Assembly (NCBI GenBank): GCA_964471165.1
Contig: CAYYEX010000005.1
Coordinates: forward strand, 42,593 to 106,592
Direction of reading: 5' to 3'
Source of the DNA: an uncultured Candidatus Saccharibacteria bacterium
GTDB lineage: Bacteria > Patescibacteriota > Minisyncoccia > Phycocordibacterales > UBA2100
Length of the DNA: 64,000 nt
The notes under the pieces were generated by a model. The model did no database searches and was not told the DNA's origin. It saw only the letters and a list, made by a program, of their open reading frames with translations. Each line of letters opens with the position of its first letter. Position 1 is the first letter of the stretch. This document shows, in pieces, positions 1,415 through 55,203 of this stretch. A program made the position numbers and the translations under genes.

Positions 1415-2956
1415 ATGAAATCGCACAAAGCGAAGTCCGCGATTACCAGCAAGAAAGACGCGGCTCTCCAGCGTCTCTCGATGTTTCTGCCCTCACAAAA
1501 GGCAACGTCCGCACACTGGTCAAAAATGCAAGCCGACTACATGGTCGATGCATTTAAAAGCGCTGCAAAGCACGTACCTGCGTACCGCTCATTCCTCAAG
1601 GAGCGCGGTGTTATGGCAAAGGACATAAAATCCGTTGCGGACATGAAAAAGGTGCCGCCCACATCAAAAAAGAATTATTTACGCAGTCACCCGTGGGAAG
1701 ACTTGTGTATGCCGGGCTCTCTTGCGGGCACACAGCTCGTTCTCACCGCAACCTCTGGCTCAACGGGCGAACCGTTCTATTTTCCACGCACGGATGTTGT
1801 TGAGGAGCAGTCGTACATCTATCACCGCACGTTTCTAAAGAACAGCGGACTCGACCCCCAGGAGCCCACGCTCGTAATCGTGGCATTCGGAATGGGTGTG
1901 TGGATTGGCGGACTTATTACATACGAGGCTTTCAACCGCATCTCCCAGCGCGATTTCCCGCTTACTCTTCTCACCCCAGGTGTAAACAAGCATGAAATTT
2001 ACGCGGCACTGCGCGAAATTGGGTCTCGATACACGCAGGTAATTCTTTGTGGCTATCCTCCGTTTGTAAAAGACATCATCGACGATGGTAAGGGAAACGG
2101 CGTGGACTGGAAACAGTTCGACATGCGAATCGTGTGTGCGGCCGAAGGTTTTTCCGAAGACTTCCGTGATTACCTCGTAACAGAGGCTCACATGACGAAT
2201 CGGTATCGCGACATCATGAATATCTACGGCAGCGCGGAGCTTGGCACAATGGCTACGGAGACCCCTCTTGCTGTTTTGGTTCGAGAACTCAGTCTCAAAA
2301 ACCCCGTACTGTTTTCAAAGTTGTTTGGGGAGGCAACGCGTTTGCCGACACTTGCGCAATACATTCCATCATTCGTTAGTTTCGAAGCGGTAGATAATCG
2401 TATTTACTGTACCTCCGGCAATGTGTTACCGATGATTCGCTATGAAATTGGTGATCACGGTGGCGTGATGACATATGCAGAGCTCAAAAATATCTGCGCG
2501 TCAGAGGGAGTTGACCTCAAGGCTGAAGCAAAGAAGGCGGGTATTACCGATACGGTCAAAGAACTACCGTTTGTCTATGTGTATGAACGCGCCGATCTTT
2601 CTACAAAACTTTACGGTGCAATTATTTACCCAGAACACATTAAGCACGGGCTGATAATCAAGAGTCTGCACAAGGAAGTAACTGGCAAGTTTACAATTGC
2701 AACTAAGAATGACGAAAACCAGGATGAATACCTTGAGGTAAACGTTGAGTTACAACCCAAGGTGCAACCCTCGGAAGACCTCAAGGAGCGTGTCACACAG
2801 GCCATCAATGAAGCGCTTATCGCAAAGAGTGCAGAGCACCGAAACAACTCGCTCTCGCTCGGGGAGCGTGTAATTCCTCGCGTTACATTCTGGGAGCATA
2901 ACCACGCGGAACATTTCCCGGTGGGTGCAAAACACCGCTGGGTAAAGAAGAAATAA
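1415..2956 (+). CDS. Adenylate-forming enzyme, phenylacetate-CoA ligase (PaaK)/coenzyme F390 synthetase family
   Basis: 513 aa; adenylation motif TSGSTGEPFYFPRT; N-terminal PaaK-like region ending VPPTSKKNYLR; starts 27 nt after the upstream gene. Confidence 0.75.
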   Translation: MKSHKAKSAITSKKDAALQRLSMFLPSQKATSAHWSKMQADYMVDAFKSAAKHVPAYRSFLKERGVMAKDIKSVADMKKVPPTSKKNYLRSHPWEDLCMPGSLAGTQLVLTATSGSTGEPFYFPRTDVVEEQSYIYHRTFLKNSGLDPQEPTLVIVAFGMGVWIGGLITYEAFNRISQRDFPLTLLTPGVNKHEIYAALREIGSRYTQVILCGYPPFVKDIIDDGKGNGVDWKQFDMRIVCAAEGFSEDFRDYLVTEAHMTNRYRDIMNIYGSAELGTMATETPLAVLVRELSLKNPVLFSKLFGEATRLPTLAQYIPSFVSFEAVDNRIYCTSGNVLPMIRYEIGDHGGVMTYAELKNICASEGVDLKAEAKKAGITDTVKELPFVYVYERADLSTKLYGAIIYPEHIKHGLIIKSLHKEVTGKFTIATKNDENQDEYLEVNVELQPKVQPSEDLKERVTQAINEALIAKSAEHRNNSLSLGERVIPRVTFWEHNHAEHFPVGAKHRWVKKK

Positions 2957-2977
2957 CGGTATACTAAAGGCCATCCT

Positions 2978-4159
2978 ATGGAAGGCCTACCGGAGAAGCT
3001 TCAAGAAATGCGCGCTCGCCCCATACCGGAGCGCCCGCGCTTTTTTGATATCAAAACAGATTCGGCTGAGCTATCTGCACTTATTGATTCTGGAGCACTC
3101 TTGCGTGTTTCTGATGACTACGAGGAAGCGTCTCGTGAGCTTTTTGCTATACAGAATCCGACACTCGTGTATGCACCGGGGTTTGAGGACGCATTCCAAA
3201 AACACTACACAATTCTTACAAGCAATGTGCCCGAGATACTCGGACGCTGGGTATATTTTCCCTGGAACGGCACACTGTGCCATATCCTTGCAGAAGCCGA
3301 TTACTTTCGCGTCCGAACGGCGCGCAATCGGAATTTGATAACAGAGGTAGAACAGGAGCGATTCTACAATTCGACAATCGGTATTGCAGGGCTCTCGGTG
3401 GGTTCGAGTGTTGCATTCAGTATTGCGCTACAGGGCGGCGGAAAGAAACTCAAACTTGCTGACATGGATTATTTGGCGCTTTCAAACACGAATCGTGTTC
3501 TCTCGGGTGCCCCGGAGTTGGGCTCGCTCAAGGTATCTATGGCAGCCAGACGTATTTACGAAATGAATCCCTATGCAGAAATCGAGCTGTTTCCACAAGG
3601 ATTACAACCTGAAAACATAGCAGCATTTTTCGACGGACTCGATATTGTTATCGACGAGCTTGATAACCTAGCTGTAAAATTTTTAATTCGAGAGCATGCA
3701 AAAAAGAACCACATTGCGGTAGTAATGGGCGCCGACAACGGGGACAATGCGGTTATTGATATTGAACGCTACGATGTGGACCCACAGCCACCATTCTTTC
3801 ATGGTCGGATGGGGAATGTTTCCTACGATTCACTCAAGGCGCTGGATAAGTTCGGTATCGGCAAAACTATTACGCAACACATCGGTCCAGAGAATGTAAC
3901 GATGCGTATGCAGGAATCTTTGATGGAAATGGGCAAAACCATTGTTTCCTGGCCGCAATTGGGCGGTGCTGCGCTCATCAACGGGGCAGCGGTTGCATAC
4001 TGCGTACGAAAGATTCTCAACGGGGAGAAGCTCGAGTCGAATCGCGCACTCGTATCGGTTGATGAAAAATTAGTTCCCGACTTTATGTCAGATGAGCAAA
4101 AAAAGGAGCGGACTGAAACCGCGCACGCATTTGCTGCCCGATTCGGCATCACACTATGA
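2978..4159 (+). CDS. E1-like/ThiF-MoeB family protein with degenerate nucleotide-binding glycine loop and ~130-aa N-terminal extension
   Basis: 393 aa; Rossmann-like segment IGIAGLSVGSSVAFSIALQGGGKKLKLADMDY resembles ThiF/MoeB/E1, but the GxGxxG motif is degenerate (GIAGLSVGS). 22-nt gap to the upstream gene and 4-nt overlap with the downstream gene. Confidence 0.6.
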   Translation: MEGLPEKLQEMRARPIPERPRFFDIKTDSAELSALIDSGALLRVSDDYEEASRELFAIQNPTLVYAPGFEDAFQKHYTILTSNVPEILGRWVYFPWNGTLCHILAEADYFRVRTARNRNLITEVEQERFYNSTIGIAGLSVGSSVAFSIALQGGGKKLKLADMDYLALSNTNRVLSGAPELGSLKVSMAARRIYEMNPYAEIELFPQGLQPENIAAFFDGLDIVIDELDNLAVKFLIREHAKKNHIAVVMGADNGDNAVIDIERYDVDPQPPFFHGRMGNVSYDSLKALDKFGIGKTITQHIGPENVTMRMQESLMEMGKTIVSWPQLGGAALINGAAVAYCVRKILNGEKLESNRALVSVDEKLVPDFMSDEQKKERTETAHAFAARFGITL

Positions 4160-5208
4160 ACGAAGACATCCTGTTTGCGCTCTCCGCTGCAAACGCAGCA
4201 CCATCCGGTGAGAACAGTCAGCCGTGGCGCTTCATCGTACGTGAAGACAAGGTCGAGCTCTGGAACCGACCAGAGCGTGATCGTTCGCTGTATAACTGGC
4301 AACAAAGTGCCTCGTATGTTTCAAATGGTGCCGCCCTTGAAAACATGGTTATTGCGGCAAGCGCCCGTGGTCTCGCAACTGAGGTGGAGTATTTTCCACA
4401 AACGAGCACAGACCATGTGGCAACGGTTCGTTTTACGCGCGGTGCATCTCCGGACCCGCTTGCTGAGCCGGTTCTTAAACGAGCAACAAACAGAAAGCCG
4501 TATTCGAAAGAGTCGCTCACACCGGCACAAGCCGGCGCACTATCGGGTTGTTTTGAAAAGGATCTCTGTTCACTTCGACTGATTGGCGAGAGAGATGCAA
4601 TCAATCGCCTCGGACGCATTGGCTCCACGAATGAAGAGATTATGCTCACGAGCAAACAAATCCACTCGTTCTTCTTTGAGCACGTGAACTGGACTCCTGC
4701 CGAGGACGCAAAAAAAACTGTTGGCTTTTTCATAGATACACTTGAGTTGCCACCGCCGGCCCGCGTGATGTTTCGTTTGCTTCGTCGCTGGCCGGTTGCG
4801 TTGCTGCTTACCCGACTCGGGCTGCATCGTGTCATTGCCAAGGAGAACGGAGCGGTGAATGCCTCTGCCGCTGCTATTGGGATAGTTTCTGTGCGTTCGC
4901 TTGAGCCAACAGAGCTCGTACGAGCGGGTCGCGCAATCGAGCGCATCTGGCTTACAGCAACATCGCTTGGGCTTTCATTCCAGCCGCTCTCGGGCATGTT
5001 GTTTTTTGAGTTAATGCGGGCACACGGTGACGCGTCGAAATTCTCTGAAACACATGCAAAAATGATTGAAGAAGCATACGCCGAAGTCCGACGCATTTCC
5101 GGTTTCTCTGAGGGTTCAATCGTCTTTATGTTCCGCACCGGAATAGGGGAGCCCCCGACAGCACGCTCATCTCGCTTTACGCTTGAACGCACAATGCAGG
5201 CTGAGTAA
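4156..5208 (+). CDS. Nitroreductase-superfamily protein, apparently two tandem nitroreductase-like halves (SagB/McbC-type dehydrogenase-like)
   Basis: 350 aa; N-terminal APSGENSQPWRF motif typical of the FMN nitroreductase fold; a second basic motif KRATNRKPY is further in; about twice the size of single-domain nitroreductases. Confidence 0.65.
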   Translation: MNEDILFALSAANAAPSGENSQPWRFIVREDKVELWNRPERDRSLYNWQQSASYVSNGAALENMVIAASARGLATEVEYFPQTSTDHVATVRFTRGASPDPLAEPVLKRATNRKPYSKESLTPAQAGALSGCFEKDLCSLRLIGERDAINRLGRIGSTNEEIMLTSKQIHSFFFEHVNWTPAEDAKKTVGFFIDTLELPPPARVMFRLLRRWPVALLLTRLGLHRVIAKENGAVNASAAAIGIVSVRSLEPTELVRAGRAIERIWLTATSLGLSFQPLSGMLFFELMRAHGDASKFSETHAKMIEEAYAEVRRISGFSEGSIVFMFRTGIGEPPTARSSRFTLERTMQAE

Positions 5209-38712: not shown

Positions 38713-40767
38713 CTACTGCACCGCAGCGGCTGTTGCTTGCGTAAACACGGTGCCATTCTGCGCGGTACACGCAATCATGAATCGCATAATGCCGCTCGAC
38801 GAAGCCATCACAATTTTCGAGCCTTCGTTTGTCGTTCCTATCGTTGTAGTCCCCGTCTTTGTGACCATAATGGTTCTGCACGGAATACTCGGATTTGTTC
38901 CCACGCTCGACCACGAAACTACAATGCGATTTCCAACATATGCGTTTTGCGGCTGCGCCACAATGGAAGCCACCGCCTGCTGTTGCGAAGCCTGAGATTG
39001 GTACTGAACCTGCTGAGCCGTCGGATTCTGAACGGGTGCCTGGGAAGTAGGCCGAAACATATTTCCAAAGGCAGATGACCCCGAACCACCTGAGTTCGTG
39101 GAATAACCGGTCGGTGTTGAGTACCCCGTTGGAGTGGAGTATCCGGTCTGGCCATCGTAAAACGGATTAGCCGCATTGAACGCACTTCCACCACCTGTGT
39201 ATGTGCCACTGCCGCTTGTAATTCCCGTAAATGGGGAGCCGTTCGTTGCCATGGAAGGTATCACGCTTCCGTTTCCACCGAGGCGCCGGTCAAGTTCGCC
39301 AAATACTCCAGCAACAGTTCCACCACTTCTGAATATCGAACTATTGTTATTGCATGCTGAATTACCGAGCGCGGAGCCGCACAGGGAGAACGCAGAATTG
39401 TTTGGGCCATTAACGTATGCGTTGTACATTCGCTGGTAGCCGCCTTCTCCAAATACGTGGATTGCATACTGACAGGATGTAAGCGTGAGACCCGCCTGTG
39501 TGCACGAGGTGCCGTACTTTTCAGCAAATTGATTCATCTTTGCGTTCATCACGTGAGTCGAGATAGTGGGGTCATTTCGATAGTTGCAATCGGAATACTG
39601 ACCGTTGCCGGTGGAGTTTGCGTACGCCTGCCATGTTGGGCATAGAAAGTGGTACGGGCCTTGAACAGAGGAAAGCGGGTTGCTGTTAATGCGACCGCAG
39701 CTACTTTCAGCTCGCATAATATTTCCTGCAAGACCCTCCACGCCACACTGCTGTGGTAAGCCAGATGAAACTTTCGCCTCCTGCTCAAACGTATTTTCTC
39801 GCAGTAGCCGCTGCTGTTCTGCAATTTCCTTAGCTTCGTCGGGTGTAATTTGTTTTGGCGGCGCCATTTCCGCAATACTCTTCATAGTATCCTCGTTGAG
39901 GTTCAACTCTTTCGCAATTGCCTGCGCTCCTGCGGTGTCGTTTGAAAGCGACTTTTGAATCATTTCTTTTATCTTATCGGAATCACTTTCGACAAGCGCC
40001 TTAGCCTGATCAGGCGGCACTTTGTATTTTTCCGTCAGCATCTGCGCGAGCGCATCCGAATCCTTTGGTGTCTCCGGCGGTTTAGCAACGCCTGTCTCAT
40101 CAGGCTGTGGTGTTTCGGCCGGCTTCGACGCGGTTACCGTCGAATCAAGCGTCTCCTCTTTTGGTGCAGGCGATGGAGACCCGAGTCTGCTGAATTGGTC
40201 AAAACCAGGATCAAGTCCGTTTTTTCCGTTGGTCGTAAACGCCTTTATCGCATTTTCGACGTTTGGGTCGCAACGAGACTTCGGCCCTTCAACTCTTTCG
40301 TTGGTAAGTACGGCAGGAATTGTGTAGCCGAGAGCTTTTCCCGCAATTGCCTCAAACGTACCGATAGGAACGGACTTGGCCGTCACAGAGGGCAGCCCCT
40401 TTCCGTTTCTGCAACTTCGCGCTTCAAATGGCTTATCGAGAGGTGAATATACATTTTTTACCTTGGCAGGGTCGGGCTTTTGGCCGCCACAATGGTCTTT
40501 CGCCGTCGTAACAATCTTTAATTTTTTGTCCTGTGCACTGATGGTAAGCACCACATCAAAACACGCATTCGGACATACTACTTTCTGTTTGAGAAAGTTA
40601 TCCATGACAGAGGCGTCGCTATTATCGTCCACGAAGAAATTTATTCCAGACGGGTTTCCCGTTTTGCCCTGGCACAGCTTATCGAGCGCTGCATCTGCAG
40701 ATGCGGCATATGGAAATACCAGCATGGATACCGCAACAAAAAAGATTCCTGCGCGCATTCTCTGCAT
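38713..40767 (-). CDS. Large secreted protein with Ser/Thr/Gly-rich low-complexity tail and tandem PTGYST repeats; central region with possible lysozyme-like (SLT-like) motifs
   Basis: 684 aa; signal peptide MQRMRAGIFFVAVSMLVFPYAASADA; central ES...YNAYVNG motif spacing weakly resembles lytic transglycosylase family 1; C-terminal ~250 aa are S/T/G/N-rich with (PTGYST)x3. Confidence 0.55.
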   Translation of the reverse strand: MQRMRAGIFFVAVSMLVFPYAASADAALDKLCQGKTGNPSGINFFVDDNSDASVMDNFLKQKVVCPNACFDVVLTISAQDKKLKIVTTAKDHCGGQKPDPAKVKNVYSPLDKPFEARSCRNGKGLPSVTAKSVPIGTFEAIAGKALGYTIPAVLTNERVEGPKSRCDPNVENAIKAFTTNGKNGLDPGFDQFSRLGSPSPAPKEETLDSTVTASKPAETPQPDETGVAKPPETPKDSDALAQMLTEKYKVPPDQAKALVESDSDKIKEMIQKSLSNDTAGAQAIAKELNLNEDTMKSIAEMAPPKQITPDEAKEIAEQQRLLRENTFEQEAKVSSGLPQQCGVEGLAGNIMRAESSCGRINSNPLSSVQGPYHFLCPTWQAYANSTGNGQYSDCNYRNDPTISTHVMNAKMNQFAEKYGTSCTQAGLTLTSCQYAIHVFGEGGYQRMYNAYVNGPNNSAFSLCGSALGNSACNNNSSIFRSGGTVAGVFGELDRRLGGNGSVIPSMATNGSPFTGITSGSGTYTGGGSAFNAANPFYDGQTGYSTPTGYSTPTGYSTNSGGSGSSAFGNMFRPTSQAPVQNPTAQQVQYQSQASQQQAVASIVAQPQNAYVGNRIVVSWSSVGTNPSIPCRTIMVTKTGTTTIGTTNEGSKIVMASSSGIMRFMIACTAQNGTVFTQATAAAVQ
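39098..39152. repeat. Three imperfect 18-nt tandem repeats encoding (PTGYST)x3 within the secreted protein gene
   Basis: ggaataaccggtcggtgtt / gagtaccccgttggagtg / gagtatccggtctggcc on the plus strand, in the minus-strand CDS. Confidence 0.7.
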
Positions 40768-40812
40768 TGTACCGTTACGAGGGCTCGCTACGGTGTTGGT
40801 ATGTGGAGAAGC

Positions 40813-42129
40813 CTACTGTCGAGTAAACATTCTCATCATGCTTTCAAAAAGTGTTCGGAATGACGCGATAATAGAAAGAAATGTCTGCGTTGTCTGTGGT
40901 GAGAGTGCCTGCTCGCTCTGCACTATTGTTTGCTGCTGGAATGTATTTTCCTGTGGCGCTGTTGCTGAATAGCTAACAGGATTATTGGGGCGTGGAATAG
41001 TTCCTGCACCCACCACCTCAGCTGAGTTTGCCTGCATCTGCGCCACATCATCGTATTGAGATACAGCCATTAAGGACACATTACTAGTGTCATAAAGAGC
41101 TGCAGGAGCCGGGCTCTGCTGTTGAACAACAGGGCGAGACCCCGCGGATTGTGGCGTGGAGAACAAATCAATGAGTGCCTGTGCCGTGCTTTGAACAACT
41201 CGTATTCCCGATGTTGCGCTCGATTGCTGGAAGAGCGAAGAGAGCATCGTGCTCGACGGAGTGCCTTGAGTGGGAACGGGTGCCTGCGGCAGCGGTGCCC
41301 CGTAATATCCAGGGTCTGCGTAGGCAGGCGCGCCTGTGTAAACCTGCGAGCCATTCCCGACTGCGCCACCCCCGGAACTTCCCCCAGTAGAACCACCAGT
41401 CGGCGAGGATTGCGGTTCCTGGTACGACTGTCCCGGAGATTGCCCTGGGCTCTGCATTCCTTGCAGCGGATTCTGTGGCGCAAGACTCATCGGCGGAATA
41501 TGCTGCGCACTCACAGGAGTGCCCTCTTCTTTTGGCTGTCCTCCACACGGAGCGAGTGCTGATGCGGCATCGCCTGACTGCCTTGGAATACCAGCGATTT
41601 GAGTCCAATCTTTAGGCGCACGATTGGGATTTTTTGTAATGTAGTTCATTGCAAACTCCGCTGAATACCCATTGAAGTTTCCTACCGCAATATCCATTTT
41701 GTCGGTTCGCGCTTTTCCATCGCAGAATTGACGTACGAATGCACACGAACAAGTCCCATTGAAGGCGCAACCGGTGTCGTGCACATAGCCAACCACGTTA
41801 CTGAGCGTGTGCGTCTTTCCGTCGCCACCATTGCCAGGCGGCGAAGTGTACGTGACTGTGCCAATGCAATAGTAGCGGCCTTTCATTGAGGAGGCGGATG
41901 CGAGCGTTACGTACTTAGACTTACCGAGTCGCACGTCGTCGAGCGTATGTATTCCATTCGATGAACCTTCCGCATCTTTCTGTGATGCAGTCATCGGCCC
42001 TTGCATTTTCCCTGATGCTCCCGGGCCGTAAAACGTCCAGTTAATTGTGTTTGCGGCGTCCGCACTGGAATAAACAAAGAAAATGAGCAATACGACTGAA
42101 TACAAAATCACCCGTGGCATTACACACAT
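40813..42129 (-). CDS. Secreted hypothetical protein with Cys-rich N-domain and Pro/Gln/Ser/Gly-rich low-complexity C-terminus
   Basis: Start placed at MCVMPRVILYSVVLLIFFVYSSADA (signal peptide); the tracked ORF extends to 42285, overlapping atpC. Repeats QSPGQSPGQS and GGSTGGSSGGG. Confidence 0.5.
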   Translation of the reverse strand: MCVMPRVILYSVVLLIFFVYSSADAANTINWTFYGPGASGKMQGPMTASQKDAEGSSNGIHTLDDVRLGKSKYVTLASASSMKGRYYCIGTVTYTSPPGNGGDGKTHTLSNVVGYVHDTGCAFNGTCSCAFVRQFCDGKARTDKMDIAVGNFNGYSAEFAMNYITKNPNRAPKDWTQIAGIPRQSGDAASALAPCGGQPKEEGTPVSAQHIPPMSLAPQNPLQGMQSPGQSPGQSYQEPQSSPTGGSTGGSSGGGAVGNGSQVYTGAPAYADPGYYGAPLPQAPVPTQGTPSSTMLSSLFQQSSATSGIRVVQSTAQALIDLFSTPQSAGSRPVVQQQSPAPAALYDTSNVSLMAVSQYDDVAQMQANSAEVVGAGTIPRPNNPVSYSATAPQENTFQQQTIVQSEQALSPQTTQTFLSIIASFRTLFESMMRMFTRQ

Positions 42130-42184
42130 TGTACCGTTACTTGTGCGGCTACAGTTTGCCGCATGTGGAGAATTTCGCACCCGC

Positions 42185-45291: not shown

Positions 45292-46206
45292 TTATCGCAT
45301 TGCTTCCATGCCAGATGTAATTTCAGATACTTCGCGCGTAATTGCAGCCTGACGAACTTTGTTGAAAAGTCGTGTGAGATTGTGTGCCATTTCTTTTGCC
45401 TTGTCGGTTGCGCTCTTCATCGAAACCATTCGCGCAGAGTGCTCGGATGCCTTGCTCTCGAGGAGCCCGTGGTACACAGCAATGTTGAGCAGCTTCGGAA
45501 GAAGTACCGCGAGCACCGCGTCTGCATCCGGTTCAATTTCATAGGAAGCAGGTGCAGCACTTACTTCTCCGGACGGGGCGTATTTTCCACGTGCTGGTCG
45601 GATTCCCTTTACGGTCTCGCGCATGAGTTCCGCAGAAATAGGAACGATTTGCCGCACGATTGGTTCCTGCTCAAACGTGGAAACGAAGTTTTGGTACGCA
45701 ATGATTGCCGTACCAATTTCGCTCGATTGATGCCACGAAAGAATGAGGTCAGTCACCGAACGCATTTCAGACTCGGTTACGTCGTCACGCTTGTTGAGCT
45801 CGCGCAGACGCACATCGTAGCCGCGATTGTGAAAATGGTCCCCTCCGCGCCGGCCAATGCACGCCATCACGATGTCCTCTTTTGAAAGTCCTCGAGCCGC
45901 AATCTCATTCTCCACCTTGCGAATCACTGCGCTATTGAGCGAGCCTGCGAGACCTTTGTCTGAGGTTACAACGATGAATGCAGTTTTCCCTGCGCGCGCA
46001 CTCATGAGTGCGTGACGCGACATGTCTGCAGTACTTGAAATGCGCTCAAGCACCGTGAGTGCCGCAGCGGCATAGGAGCGGCCAGAAAGCGCACGCTCCT
46101 GAGCCTTGCGCATCTTTACCGCCGACACCGCCTCCATGGCATGCGTAACAGTTCCCGTTTTTTTGTACGAGATGATTTTTGATTTGATTGCTTTCAGGTT
46201 CGCCAT
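45292..46206 (-). CDS. atpG: F1 ATP synthase gamma subunit
   Basis: MANLKAIKSKIISYKKTGTVTHAMEAVSAVKMRKAQE N-terminal helix; start placed at MANLK (46206). The tracked ORF reads through the upstream heptad repeats. Confidence 0.9.
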   Translation of the reverse strand: MANLKAIKSKIISYKKTGTVTHAMEAVSAVKMRKAQERALSGRSYAAAALTVLERISSTADMSRHALMSARAGKTAFIVVTSDKGLAGSLNSAVIRKVENEIAARGLSKEDIVMACIGRRGGDHFHNRGYDVRLRELNKRDDVTESEMRSVTDLILSWHQSSEIGTAIIAYQNFVSTFEQEPIVRQIVPISAELMRETVKGIRPARGKYAPSGEVSAAPASYEIEPDADAVLAVLLPKLLNIAVYHGLLESKASEHSARMVSMKSATDKAKEMAHNLTRLFNKVRQAAITREVSEITSGMEAMR

Positions 46207-46300
46207 AGGTAGGTTGTAGGTTTTAGGTTGTAGGTTGTAGGTTGTAGTGATTCGTATTTCATTCGCTCGCACTATTCCCAATCACCTATTCCCTATACCC
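46207..46300. repeat. TAGG-based heptad tandem repeats (TAGGTTG x5 on plus, then TAGGGAA/TAGGTGA/TTGGGAA on minus) in the atpA-atpG spacer
   Basis: 46207-46247 reads taggttg taggttt taggttg taggttg taggttg tag. 46272-46300 is the reverse complement of tagggaa taggtga ttgggaa tag. The second block overlaps the atpA stop. Confidence 0.8.
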
Positions 46301-52496: not shown

Positions 52497-53768
<1,272 letters not shown>

Positions 53769-53795
53769 TTATCGATGTGTAGGTGTTTAGAAAAA

Positions 53796-53823
53796 CTTGA
53801 CAGAATAGTATTTTCATGTATAG
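53796..53823 (+). promoter_or_regulatory. Sigma70-like promoter for the MFS leader (TTGACA-16 nt-TATAGT)
   Basis: TTGACA at 53796-53801, TATAGT at 53818-53823, 16-nt spacer; about 140 nt upstream of the MFS ATG. Confidence 0.5.
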
Positions 53824-53835
53824 TCTTCGCAACAT

Positions 53836-53967
53836 AACTTCAAATCAGCCGCGGTCTTAGGACCGAACGAGCCCAGAGCCCTCGGCTGACTTGAAAAGCC
53901 CGAGGGCTTTTCGACTCAGCAGGGTCGAAAGGCCCTCGTTCGCTGACAAACCACATAAGGAAATTGG
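53836..53967 (+). promoter_or_regulatory. Structured 5' leader with alternative terminator/antiterminator helices (riboswitch or attenuator candidate) upstream of the MFS transporter
   Basis: The terminator is AGCCCTCGG (53877-85) + 14-nt loop + CCGAGGGCT (53900-08) + UUUCG. Its 5' arm can instead pair with upstream UCAGCCG (53845-51). A further long-range pair is CGAACGAG (53863-70) / CTCGTTCG (53933-40). Confidence 0.45.
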
Positions 53968-55146
53968 ATGACGGATGTACAAGCGAGTCGAAATATTCGG
54001 CTCTACTATCTCCAGGCAATCTTTGGCGAGTCATTGCTGCTGGGAATCATAACGGTCGATCTGTACACGGGGCTTACCGGAATCTCACTCGCCGAAATCT
54101 TCTACATGCAGGCAGCCCTGCATGCACTTTCGGCGGTGCTCGAGGTTCCTGCAGGCGCAATCTCCGACATCTTCGGCCGCAGACGCACACTTATTGCGGC
54201 CCGCATCATCTACGGGGTCGGTTCGATTCTGTTCATGGCAATGTCGAGTCCTATCCACTTGTGGACTGCGGGCATTCTCATGGCAGTCGGCGGCTGCCTA
54301 CAATCGGGCACCGACACCTCGCTCCTGTACGAAACACTCAAAGAAAAGGGGCGAGAATCCGAATACGCTCGCATTCTCGGCGCAGCAGTCGGGTGGAGGT
54401 TAAAAATCAAAGGCGTGTGCGCACTTTCTGTTGGAGTGCTTGCCGCAATCGATCTAAGGCTTCCCCTCCTCATCGGAGTCCCGCTCACATTCCTACCACT
54501 TGTCGGTTCGTTCTTCTACACCGAACCGACACGTGTAATCGCGCACGGGCTCGAGAATCGCTTCAGCGACCTCAAGCGCGGCATCGTTGCAACACACGAG
54601 AACGTACACGTGCGTTGGATTGTCGCATTCTCTGCATTTCTCGGAGTCTCCGGGTCACTCTGGTACTGGTACAACCCGTACTACGGATTGATAGGGGTTT
54701 CGACTGCGTGGTTGGGTGTAATCGGCTTTTCTACCAACTTCATCGCAGGAATCACGAGCCGCTACGCGTATCGCATCAAGGAGAAGTTCAGTGAACGCTT
54801 CTGCATGCTTGTGGTCTCCGCATCGCAAGGCGCAACACTATTGGCTTCGGCGGCGCACCCATTCATGACGTCGATCGCGCTCATCGTTCCGCGCTCGTTT
54901 GCGGAAGGACTCTCGGGGCCAATCACTTCTGCGTACTTGAATCACCGCATTGCGAGCGTTGCGCGCAACACGGTGCTATCGATTCAATCGGCACTTGCAA
55001 ACGCCGCCACCATTGTGACGTCGCTCGTATTCGGATTGTCGATAGATGCGATCGGATTTCTGAACAGTGCGATGATCTTCGGTGCAATTCTCTCTGTGTG
55101 TGGATGCATGTTTTTTCTCGCATACCTTCGGCAGCCGAAGGTGTAA
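53968..55146 (+). CDS. Major facilitator superfamily transporter
   Basis: 12 predicted TM helices; MFS motif A-like DIFGRRRTL; 392 aa. Confidence 0.85.
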   Translation: MTDVQASRNIRLYYLQAIFGESLLLGIITVDLYTGLTGISLAEIFYMQAALHALSAVLEVPAGAISDIFGRRRTLIAARIIYGVGSILFMAMSSPIHLWTAGILMAVGGCLQSGTDTSLLYETLKEKGRESEYARILGAAVGWRLKIKGVCALSVGVLAAIDLRLPLLIGVPLTFLPLVGSFFYTEPTRVIAHGLENRFSDLKRGIVATHENVHVRWIVAFSAFLGVSGSLWYWYNPYYGLIGVSTAWLGVIGFSTNFIAGITSRYAYRIKEKFSERFCMLVVSASQGATLLASAAHPFMTSIALIVPRSFAEGLSGPITSAYLNHRIASVARNTVLSIQSALANAATIVTSLVFGLSIDAIGFLNSAMIFGAILSVCGCMFFLAYLRQPKV

Positions 55147-55203
55147 CAAAACAATCCCCGGGCTCGCAAGCCCGGGGATACTCATTTGTGTTACACAATG
55201 CGG

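Follow-up and report, generated by a model that had tools for sequence, protein, structure and literature searches.

Anatomy of the ahcY-MFS intergenic region

The window analyzed here is a stretch of 64,000 nucleotides from an uncultured Candidatus Saccharibacteria bacterium (contig CAYYEX010000005.1). In its intergenic region 53751-53967, between ahcY on the minus strand and a divergent gene for a transporter of the major facilitator superfamily (MFS) on the plus strand, we identified a promoter followed by a long structured leader of the MFS gene (Table 1). The leader is a peptide-less variant of an attenuator family of the Candidate Phyla Radiation (CPR, Patescibacteria). We favor, with modest confidence, the reading that it is a functional bistable attenuation leader, biased to the ON state, and not a small-molecule aptamer.

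Table 1. Coordinates of the leader elements and flanking genes in the window
Feature	Positions	Strand	Remarks
Sigma-70-type promoter	53797-53824	+	TTGACA 53797-53802, 16-nt spacer, TATAGT 53819-53824; 11/12 consensus positions
CAACATAA motif	53830-53837	+	Invariant in 4/4 class B loci while the promoter spacer varies; predicted RNA 5' end
S1, 5' strand of antiterminator (TTCAAATCAGCCGCGGTCT)	53839-53857	+	By homology, codons L-V-F-S-R-G of the leader peptide in relatives
Local hairpin CGGTC-TTAG-GACCG	53852-53865	+	Appears in terminator-state folds
Long-range helix, 5' strand CGAACGAG	53864-53871	+	Pairs with CTCGTTCG 53935-53942; 100% complementary in the window
Terminator-like hairpin S2:S3	53877-53911	+	Arms AGCCCTCGG 53877-53885 and CCGAGGGCT 53900-53908; loop 53886-53899
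Lock hairpin S3:S4, class-B-specific	53901-53938	+	17 bp; 53901-53917 with 53922-53938, loop AGCA
Long-range helix, 3' strand, and second GCTGA	53935-53946	+	Strand 53935-53942; GCTGA 53942-53946; constrained folds
Shine-Dalgarno-like AAGGA and MFS ATG	53957-53970	+	AAGGA 53957-53961; ATG 53968-53970
MFS transporter, 392 aa, regulated gene	53968-55146	+	Pfam MFS_1, E = 2e-16
ahcY, S-adenosylhomocysteine hydrolase	52497-53750	-	Divergent neighbor of the MFS gene

The promoter is the one that the preliminary description had placed at 53796-53823, one base off. The arrangement TTGACA-16 nt-TATAnT recurs in the related loci L013, L016, and L034 at an equal distance from the motif CAACATAR, and this spacing is the same in 4/4 loci of the window's type (class B, see below). 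Promoter-like sites overall are not enriched in the region (3 seen versus 2.1 expected). Transcription would start at A53831, the seventh base after the -10 hexamer; in the relatives that encode a leader peptide (class A), the same position is usually the A of the ATG of an upstream open reading frame (uORF). The predicted leader of ~137 nt (53831-53967) begins with the 30 nucleotides AACAUAACUUCAAAUCAGCCGCGGUCUUAG and is devoid of any AUG or GUG.

Two crude counts, made without a control, gave a Shine-Dalgarno-like motif in 5 of the 51 long open reading frames (ORFs) of the window and a -10-like hexamer 5-9 nt before the ATG in at least 12 of them, which suggests widespread leaderless or Shine-Dalgarno-independent initiation in this genome. 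A structured leader of 137 nt with a Shine-Dalgarno sequence therefore stands out among these ORFs, in line with the earlier remark that long leaders are unusual here.

The sequence (C)ACATAA of the 5' end (53830-53837) recurs directly before the Shine-Dalgarno sequence (53952-53958). The variants ACATAA (in the window and L013) and ACATAGA (in L016) change in both copies in parallel, and the direct repeat is absent from L034. A possible origin is duplication when the attenuator module inserted, which would have left the repeat as a scar; alternatively, it may be a shared binding site.

The leader can form several competing helices. Strand S1 pairs with 53877-53895 to give an antiterminator of 19 nt with 84% complementarity; the antiterminator strand reported earlier (UCAGCCG) is thus real but longer than noted. 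The second half of this helix overlaps the terminator-like hairpin S2:S3, whose stem AGCCCUCGG/CCGAGGGCU consists of 9 perfect, GC-rich base pairs with a loop of 14 nt and is followed by UUUCG. The run of 4 U (53908-53911) gives way to CGAC. All parts of the hairpin formerly listed as an intrinsic terminator are present, and a simple scan for intrinsic terminators (short loop, at least 5 U in 8) gives no call on 53877-53911, given the 14-nt loop and 4 U. The local hairpin, when extended to 53848-53872, is predicted to sequester the 3' half of S1 and is a candidate anti-antiterminator. Its loop base varies between the window, L013, and L016 (UUAG, UCAG, UGAG), and L034 has another local hairpin in its place, formed by UUCAGCCGC and GCGACUGAG.

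Downstream of the terminator-like stem, the lock hairpin S3:S4 takes up the terminator 3' arm together with the U-run. Its strand S4 (GCCCTCG, 53932-53938) is a direct repeat of 53878-53884 and a near-copy of the terminator 5' arm. The long-range helix CGAACGAG/CUCGUUCG (53864-53871 with 53935-53942) overlaps S4 and therefore belongs to an alternative conformer, which contains the terminator. In constrained folds of this conformer, the second GCTGA (53942-53946) pairs with TCAGC of S1; CTGAC is invariant in class B. The palindromes of the leader overlap densely.

A further alternative pairing could join the terminator loop to the U-run and its downstream neighbors, to which it is complementary over 17 nt (88%, 53885-53920); the post-terminator segment UUUCGACUCAGC is therefore a near-copy of S1. 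The same complementarity between loop and post-terminator bases was seen by eye in class A, with parallel changes (UA/UA in L014 versus CG/CG in L018).

Related leaders in other genomes

Homologs of the MFS protein are rare (only four on contigs, with 38-46% identity), and its N-terminus aligns with that of the orthologs. The region upstream is readable in three of the four loci (L001, L002, and L007), which were found by protein similarity alone, and each contains the same core S1...S2...S3. In these loci the promoter is directly followed by a conserved ORF of ~40 codons, MNH[QKR]IHEMN...TQPSW...L[VI]FSRGFC[MT]TS*, and then by a canonical terminator CCUCGGCU-loop-AGCCGAGG-UUUUUAUUU. The V-F-S-R-G codons of this ORF (UAUUCAGCCGUGGA) are complementary to the terminator 5' arm and loop. 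The window aligns to the core of these relatives, TCAGCCGCGG ... CCCTCGGCTGA ... CCGAGGGCTTTT, and to the segment CTGACAAACCACATAAGGA before the Shine-Dalgarno sequence. For the closest MFS ortholog (P0002), the contig ends 33 nt upstream of the gene, and these nucleotides (CTCTGACACGACGCATAGTGGAAAGG) represent the same leader 3' end.

A search pattern was built on the shared core, S1 (UCAGCCGYGG) ... S2 (CCUCGGCUG) ... S3 (CCGAGG), and matches the window at 53845-53905. With this core, a promoter upstream and a same-strand gene 50-70 nt downstream, the window has the features proposed for a CPR 'FSRG' family. Scanning species-representative genomes with the pattern yielded 16 stretches, 10 of them with the full anatomy. 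Nine of these 10 are labeled as metagenome-assembled genomes (MAGs) of CPR/Patescibacteria (Saccharibacteria, Parcubacteria, Adlerbacteria, Kaiserbacteria, Microgenomatus), and one (L020) as 'uncultured bacterium'. The other six lie inside high-GC coding sequences of unrelated phyla. Four of the six were put to a covariance model of the family (R1), and three scored at most 16.3 bits and one had no match; all six were treated as chance matches.

Further copies came from other searches. A pattern scan of JGI metagenomes added the loci L031 and L034, along with duplicates of L011 and L023. A profile search with the leader peptides retrieved a few peptides already called as genes in public data, one of which (P0142, ...VYSRGFCMTS) led to L046, a copy beyond the reach of the DNA pattern. 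Model R1 itself found a second, divergent copy in L023, whose peptide ends in ...ILSNRGFCRS*. On the window, R1 scores 54.8 bits (E ~2e-11) on the plus strand and 20.5 bits on the minus strand; chance matches to the pattern reach at most 20.5 bits, and copies on which the model was not trained score 77.5 (L046) and 57.6 bits (the second L023 copy). The 64-kb window holds no second copy of the element and no complementary partner of the 5' strand by model R1 or a 3-mismatch search. An exact class-B-specific pattern had no matches in metagenomes, and scans of viral contigs for the element were likewise without matches.

Close homologs of ahcY led to one more copy (P0017), identical to that of L013, whereas five others (P0018, P0019, P0021, P0022, and P0029) are in another gene order and have no element upstream. 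The AhcY protein of L013, a locus with a Candidatus Saccharibacteria label, is 95% identical to that of the window, and other AhcY matches are labeled Patescibacteria or Kaiserbacteria; the assignment of the window to CPR is based on these neighbors. Among the ~16 loci, every one with a taxonomic label belongs to Patescibacteria.

The element always lies between a promoter and the start of a same-strand gene 50-70 nt downstream. This gene encodes an MFS transporter in the window, L001, L002, L007, and L015, an acetyltransferase of the GNAT type in L011, L012, L018, L022, L031, L046, and L034, and an S-adenosylmethionine (SAM) methyltransferase in L013 and L023. The NCBIfam models nearest to the window transporter are TetA(P) and Tet(40), whose cut-offs it misses by far. 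The GNAT proteins are Acetyltransf_3 members with SpeG, PseH, and AAC(6') as the nearest models, also below cut-off, and the methyltransferases belong to class I. This gene set is common to both classes and resembles, by analogy, inducible antibiotic/toxin resistance or detoxification.

At the ahcY-adjacent site, the class B leader is followed by three different genes (MFS in the window, a SAM methyltransferase in L013/L036, and a 117-aa highly charged protein in L016), and the gene order is different in five close relatives without the element (L039, L040, L042, L044, and L045). In its behavior, the site resembles a hotspot of cargo swapping. In L023 (Kaiserbacteria), two class A attenuators stand in tandem on the minus strand ~1.3 kb apart (2890-3072 and 4229-4440), the first before a probable membrane protein and the second before the methyltransferase.

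Class A: leaders with a peptide

Class A comprises 14 copies (12 from MFS orthologs or pattern scans, L046, and the second L023 copy). All 14 contain a short uORF with a start codon in the leader, which the window lacks. In the 12 former loci the ATG typically stands 6-8 nt past the -10 hexamer, and therefore the uORF is leaderless; it has 33-42 codons and ends 4-7 codons after FSRG (33-43 codons over the 14 copies, ...FSRGFCMTS*). An additional strand, S0 (uORF codons ~3-10), is complementary to S1 (codons ...L-V-F-S-R-G-F-C). L046 shows a compensatory change here, with UAC in place of UUC in S1 and UAU in place of AAU in S0. In computed folds, naked class A RNA prefers S0:S1 with the terminator in 11/12 loci. 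The U-tract has at least 5 U in 11/12 aligned copies (UUUUUAUUU-type), and in L022 the run is broken by G (TTGTTTGTTT).

Judged by its strands and uORF, class A appears to follow the classic 1:2 / 2:3 / 3:4 design of a ribosome-mediated attenuator, with S0:S1 as the putative anti-antiterminator, S1:S2 as the antiterminator, and S2:S3 with the U-tract as the terminator. In the proposed, trp-like cycle, S0:S1 would form without a ribosome and transcription would terminate; a ribosome retained in the 5' portion of the leaderless uORF would leave S1 free to pair with S2, giving read-through; and a ribosome running on over S1 would restore termination. Short perfect palindromes were noticed by eye between the terminator and the Shine-Dalgarno sequence of class A copies (AGATCT in L015, GAGCTC in L012, TGATCA in L001), and could be a site for a DNA-binding protein or due to chance.

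Class B: the peptide-less form

Four sequences make up class B, namely those of the window, L013 (with an identical copy in L036), L016, and L034; their mean identity is 85%. Here S1 begins 8 nt after the predicted start, and S0 is absent. In the window, only the local hairpin 53848-53872 competes for S1 in place of the missing anti-antiterminator. In the window, L016, and L034, the leader from the predicted start up to the gene contains no AUG or GUG; in L013, the gene start is ambiguous (two in-frame ATGs). In class B, an in-frame TAA or TAG just upstream (TAA at 53835-53837 in the window) closes the frame that corresponds by homology to the uORF. The U-run has 4 U (3 in L016) and is followed by CGA, and the 25-nt linker between S1 and S2 varies in sequence and length among the four loci, with a different hairpin in L034.

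Two ORFs of the window were considered and rejected. The 28-codon ORF 53751-53837 as a leader peptide would require a promoter inside ahcY, and its 'IVFS' and 'LD...CI' likenesses stem from the -35 and -10 hexamers inside the ORF; moreover, L016 has no ATG in this frame, and the sole in-frame ATG of L034 gives a 10-codon ORF within the promoter itself. The 26-codon ORF 53891-53971, which starts with TTG and runs over the MFS start, is non-coding, as it contains a 1-nt indel in L034 and falls in other frames in L013 and L016.

Covariation of the alternative helices

Covariation was analyzed in an alignment of the core region of 16 loci. The helix cores are fixed by the search pattern, so that information is provided by the flanking pairs alone. 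Pairing in the antiterminator helix amounts to 93%; 12 cells show two-sided changes, as do three pairs outside the pattern-fixed core, and 0/500 shuffles reach its score. Similarly, the terminator helix is 96% paired, with 10 two-sided cells and three pairs changed on both sides (0/500 shuffles). Flanking pairs alternate, for instance, between AU and UA (5:5) or among AU, GC, and GU (9:4:3). In the second L023 copy, found independently of the pattern, the terminator CCCCGGCU/AGCCGGGG contains a compensatory change in the core itself. L046, likewise obtained without the pattern, adds to the evidence. Comparison of MFS leaders bears out the element: it is kept upstream of the MFS genes in L001, L002, L007, and L015, and both helices covary outside the pattern-fixed bases.

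The RNAalifold consensus contains S1:S2 in class A and S1:S2 with S3:S4 in class B. In the four class B loci, pairing of the lock hairpin reaches 97%, with one compensatory change from C-G to U-A and four one-sided changes that keep the pair, through G-U wobbles existing only on the plus strand. The long-range helix, reported earlier from the window and indeed present there, is only moderately conserved across class B: 81% of its cells are paired, with one compensatory change, 7/8 pairs in L013 and L034 and a poor 4/8 in L016, and it competes with the better-kept 17-bp lock, which the preliminary description did not list as such.

Folding energies and the strand of the element

The plus-strand RNA has a minimum free energy of -59.4 kcal/mol, compared with -40.8 +/- 3.8 for shuffled sequences (z = -4.9; 0/200 shuffles as stable). 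The reverse strand folds nearly as well (z = -4.4), and therefore folding alone leaves the strand unfixed; the assignment to the plus strand follows from the G-U pairs, the orientation of the promoter, and the difference between the covariance-model scores of the two strands. Nor is the hairpin a terminator of minus-strand transcription, since no minus-strand gene ends there.

For the nascent RNA up to the U-run, the energy of the terminator state minus that of the antiterminator state is -1.8 kcal/mol in the window, +2.9 in L013, +5.2 in L016, and -0.1 in L034, so that the two nascent states of class B are predicted to be close to balance. The full leader favors S1:S2 with S3:S4 by ~6.5 (window), 10 (L013), 12-15 (L016), and 1 kcal/mol (L034). 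In the alternative conformer, the terminator hairpin lies within a multi-branch junction closed by the long-range helix and by TCAGC of S1 paired with the invariant second GCUGA (53942-53946).

A model for the window leader and its alternatives

The window copy would have been derived by loss of S0 and the uORF, reduction of the U-tract to 4 U, and duplication of an S2-like strand (S4). It has no ribosome sensor, and therefore folding alone would decide between two conformers: conformer I, with the local hairpin and S2:S3 closed by the long-range helices, and conformer II, with S1:S2 and S3:S4, free of the terminator and permitting read-through. S1:S2 would form once S2 emerges, displacing only the short local hairpin 53848-53872; the U-run is weak and would be passed by most polymerases, after which S3:S4 would lock the RNA in its read-through form. 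Expression of the MFS gene would then be prevented only by capture of S1 and the conserved single-stranded 5' end, most plausibly by a trans-acting protein, RNA, or ribosome rather than by a small molecule. This partly upholds the earlier proposal of ligand- or translation-controlled attenuation: a cis-regulatory leader with mutually exclusive hairpins is present, but translational control does not apply to the window copy, which has neither AUG nor GUG and a frame closed by TAA.

The observed part of this case consists of homology and of the alternative helices with their covariation and energies. Several points weigh against the bistable attenuation leader. The transcription start, the actual termination and read-through, and the direction of the default state are inferred. 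The invariant cores of the helices were fixed by the search pattern, an ascertainment bias. Shuffle controls of the two class-B-specific helices are non-significant (125/500 and 118/500), each helix resting on one compensatory change because there are only four class B sequences with 85% identity, so that their support is suggestive rather than significant. By standard criteria, the class B hairpin is a poor intrinsic terminator, with its 14-nt loop and 4 U (3 in L016); it may have ceased terminating, the output being perhaps RNA stability or processing. Thermodynamic folds leave co-transcriptional kinetics aside, and the Shine-Dalgarno sequence lies outside both conformers.

The strongest alternative, though one that we consider rather unlikely, is a decayed relic: a former leader-peptide attenuator that has lost its sensor and is read through constitutively, its hairpins at most stabilizing the mRNA 5' end or setting a basal level. 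Loss of the uORF and S0, erosion of the U-tract to 3-4 U, the clear preference of full-length RNA for the terminator-free conformer, and the resemblance of S3:S4 to a terminator-neutralizing device would all fit such decay. However, where decay would be expected, the promoter spacing and the invariant CAACAUA have been kept in four lineages that differ in their downstream genes, and so have both competing helices, the near-equal energies of the nascent states, and the freedom of the leader from start codons. Constitutive expression could also have been reached more easily by plain deletion of the terminator.

A bolder possibility, which we regard as slightly less likely still, is that class B is a ribosome-independent RNA sensor evolved from a leader-peptide attenuator, the uORF and S0 having been replaced by an RNA-only module (CAACAUAA, the local hairpin, and the duplicated S1'/S4 lock) read by a ligand, protein, or RNA. 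If so, a single family would document an evolutionary transition from peptide-dependent to peptide-independent attenuation, and the class B sensor would govern, across CPR, a small regulon of MFS, GNAT, and methyltransferase genes with a resistance- or detoxification-like character.

The preliminary description proposed a novel class of riboswitch, in which a small-molecule ligand would shift the balance between terminator and antiterminator to control the transporter. Such a class would indeed be new, as was suspected from the lack of an obvious match to the TPP, fluoride, ZTP, preQ1, or guanidine aptamers: none of the 4227 models of Rfam 15 matches 53500-54300 at E <= 10, none reaches its gathering score in the whole window, and nothing was found by Rfam at the element in eight related loci. 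The bistable architecture, the multi-helix junction of the terminator-containing conformer, and the association with transporter, acetyltransferase, and methyltransferase genes would suit a sensor of toxic metabolites. Nevertheless, the only room for an aptamer before the terminator is the 25-nt S1-S2 linker, which varies and is replaced in L034. The junction helices use strands that are transcribed after the U-run and therefore cannot inform the termination decision. No binding-pocket-like set of invariant unpaired nucleotides exists beyond the strands in alternative pairings, and the homologous class A leaders would sense through a uORF rather than an aptamer. Because the linker is variable and there is no conserved aptamer core or junction, and with the relatives forming a leader-peptide family, a small-molecule riboswitch is improbable. 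A riboswitch for S-adenosylhomocysteine or SAM, which the neighboring ahcY would prompt, was rejected as well: it has no Rfam match and no conserved aptamer, and both strand and position associate the element with the MFS gene.

Cryptic translation, by which the leader would still sense ribosomes, has very little probability. It would involve reading the 18-codon frame 53838-53894 (LQISRGLRTERAQSPRLT*) from a non-canonical start; the homologous segment of the relatives' leader peptide is its C-terminal part. In the window, L013, and L016, S-R-G-L-R-T is retained in this frame through the synonymous codons CUU, CUC, and CUG. No indels occur between the flanking stops, and in L034 the frame reads IHFSRGFSD*, close to the class A ending FSRGFSRT*. 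But no AUG, GUG, or UUG occurs at or near the 5' end, the first codons being CUU or AUU right after the in-frame UAA or UAG, and leaderless initiation normally requires a 5' AUG. RNA constraints explain the 'synonymous' pattern equally well, since the variable site is the free base of the UNAG loop and the terminator stem accommodates AGC to AGU as a G-U pair.

Finally, there is the equally remote possibility that the element is not a leader but an independent small RNA, or else a palindrome that acts at the level of DNA, for example as a protein operator or as a recombination site, and that the divergent ahcY promoter shares. Such a reading would suit the good folding of both strands, the densely overlapping palindromes, the ACATAA direct repeat flanking the element, and the three cargo genes behind the same leader beside ahcY, but it conflicts with the strand-specific G-U pairs and covariance-model scores, the constant position, with a promoter before the element and the start of a same-strand gene 50-70 nt after it, and the unmistakable attenuator anatomy of the class A homologs.

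Other features of the window

The ahcY gene has its own weak promoter-like site at 53789-53761. Just past the MFS stop codon (55146), between convergent genes, lies a perfect 11-bp GC-rich hairpin, ATCCCCGGGCT-CGCA-AGCCCGGGGAT (55154-55179), which the scan calls terminator-like on both strands and which is therefore probably a bidirectional terminator of the MFS gene and the convergent genes. A tandem heptamer GTAGGTT (5.6 copies, 93% matches; ACAACCT on the gene strand) at 46209-46247 is located directly upstream of the minus-strand ORF 45292-46206. The adjacent minus-strand genes 38713-40767 and 40813-42129 are preceded by very similar 40-nt segments (TCCACAT...GTAACGGTACA-ATG; ~40768-40810 and ~42130-42170), which may be a common 5' regulatory element of paralogs.

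Significance and comparison with known systems

CPR bacteria live as epibionts on other bacteria, and to our knowledge few of their regulatory systems have been characterized experimentally. The attenuator described here recurs in MAGs of Saccharibacteria, Parcubacteria, Adlerbacteria, Kaiserbacteria, and the Microgenomates type, and a limited literature search found no description of leader peptides or riboswitches of this kind in Patescibacteria/CPR. The family is thus new to Rfam and to the literature searched, although its logic, terminator/antiterminator attenuation, is already known. The putative coupling of leaderless translation to transcription termination in class A would be unusual among classical attenuators. 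In the window copy, the same RNA chassis would work, or at least persist under selection, without the peptide, and classes A and B offer a natural pair of variants for studying how ribosome-sensing leaders become RNA-only switches. The covariance model lets annotators find small uORFs and leaders that are mostly missed by gene callers.

Class A shares its logic with the attenuators of amino-acid operons (trp, his, leu, thr, phe; Rfam Trp_leader, His_leader, Leu_leader, Thr_leader, Phe_leader), which have a short uORF over region 1, alternative hairpins 1:2, 2:3, and 3:4, and a terminal terminator. The window copy keeps the competition of 2:3 with 3:4, but has no uORF and possesses the additional strand S4. 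The family differs in the lack of runs of regulatory codons, in its leaderless uORF, and in the regulated genes (MFS, GNAT, and methyltransferase), which are not biosynthetic. There is no sequence or model match to these attenuators, the best being Phe_leader with 30.8 bits (threshold 55), elsewhere in L022.

Drug efflux pumps of the mef family belong to MFS. On the grounds of gene content only, the best functional analogy for class A may be antibiotic-responsive attenuation, with the erm and cat translational attenuators as cousins. In Bacillus subtilis bmrB-bmrCD (PMC4191407) and Streptococcus pneumoniae mef(E)/mel (PMC4335068), a leader-peptide uORF and a terminator/antiterminator precede efflux pumps, and slowing of the ribosome in the uORF favors read-through. 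The likeness to class A lies in the short uORF, the terminator/antiterminator, and the position before efflux pumps and drug-modifying-type enzymes. However, the sequences are unrelated, the phyla differ from CPR, and initiation in class A is leaderless. The window copy cannot work in this manner, since the peptide is absent.

The guanidine-I/ykkC and fluoride riboswitches likewise have a 5' leader with a mutually exclusive terminator and antiterminator before a transporter gene, but the window leader matches no Rfam model (E <= 10) and has no conserved aptamer, and its homologs use a uORF. Finally, the RAT, the (G/U)AG repeats, and the PyrR box of the PyrR, TRAP, LicT/BglG, and HutP attenuators are all absent from the window leader. 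These systems nevertheless share with it the lack of a uORF, and their trans-acting factors, which act on a single-stranded or hairpin element, might serve, purely by analogy, as a model for the reading of the 5' CAACAUAA-S1 segment in class B.

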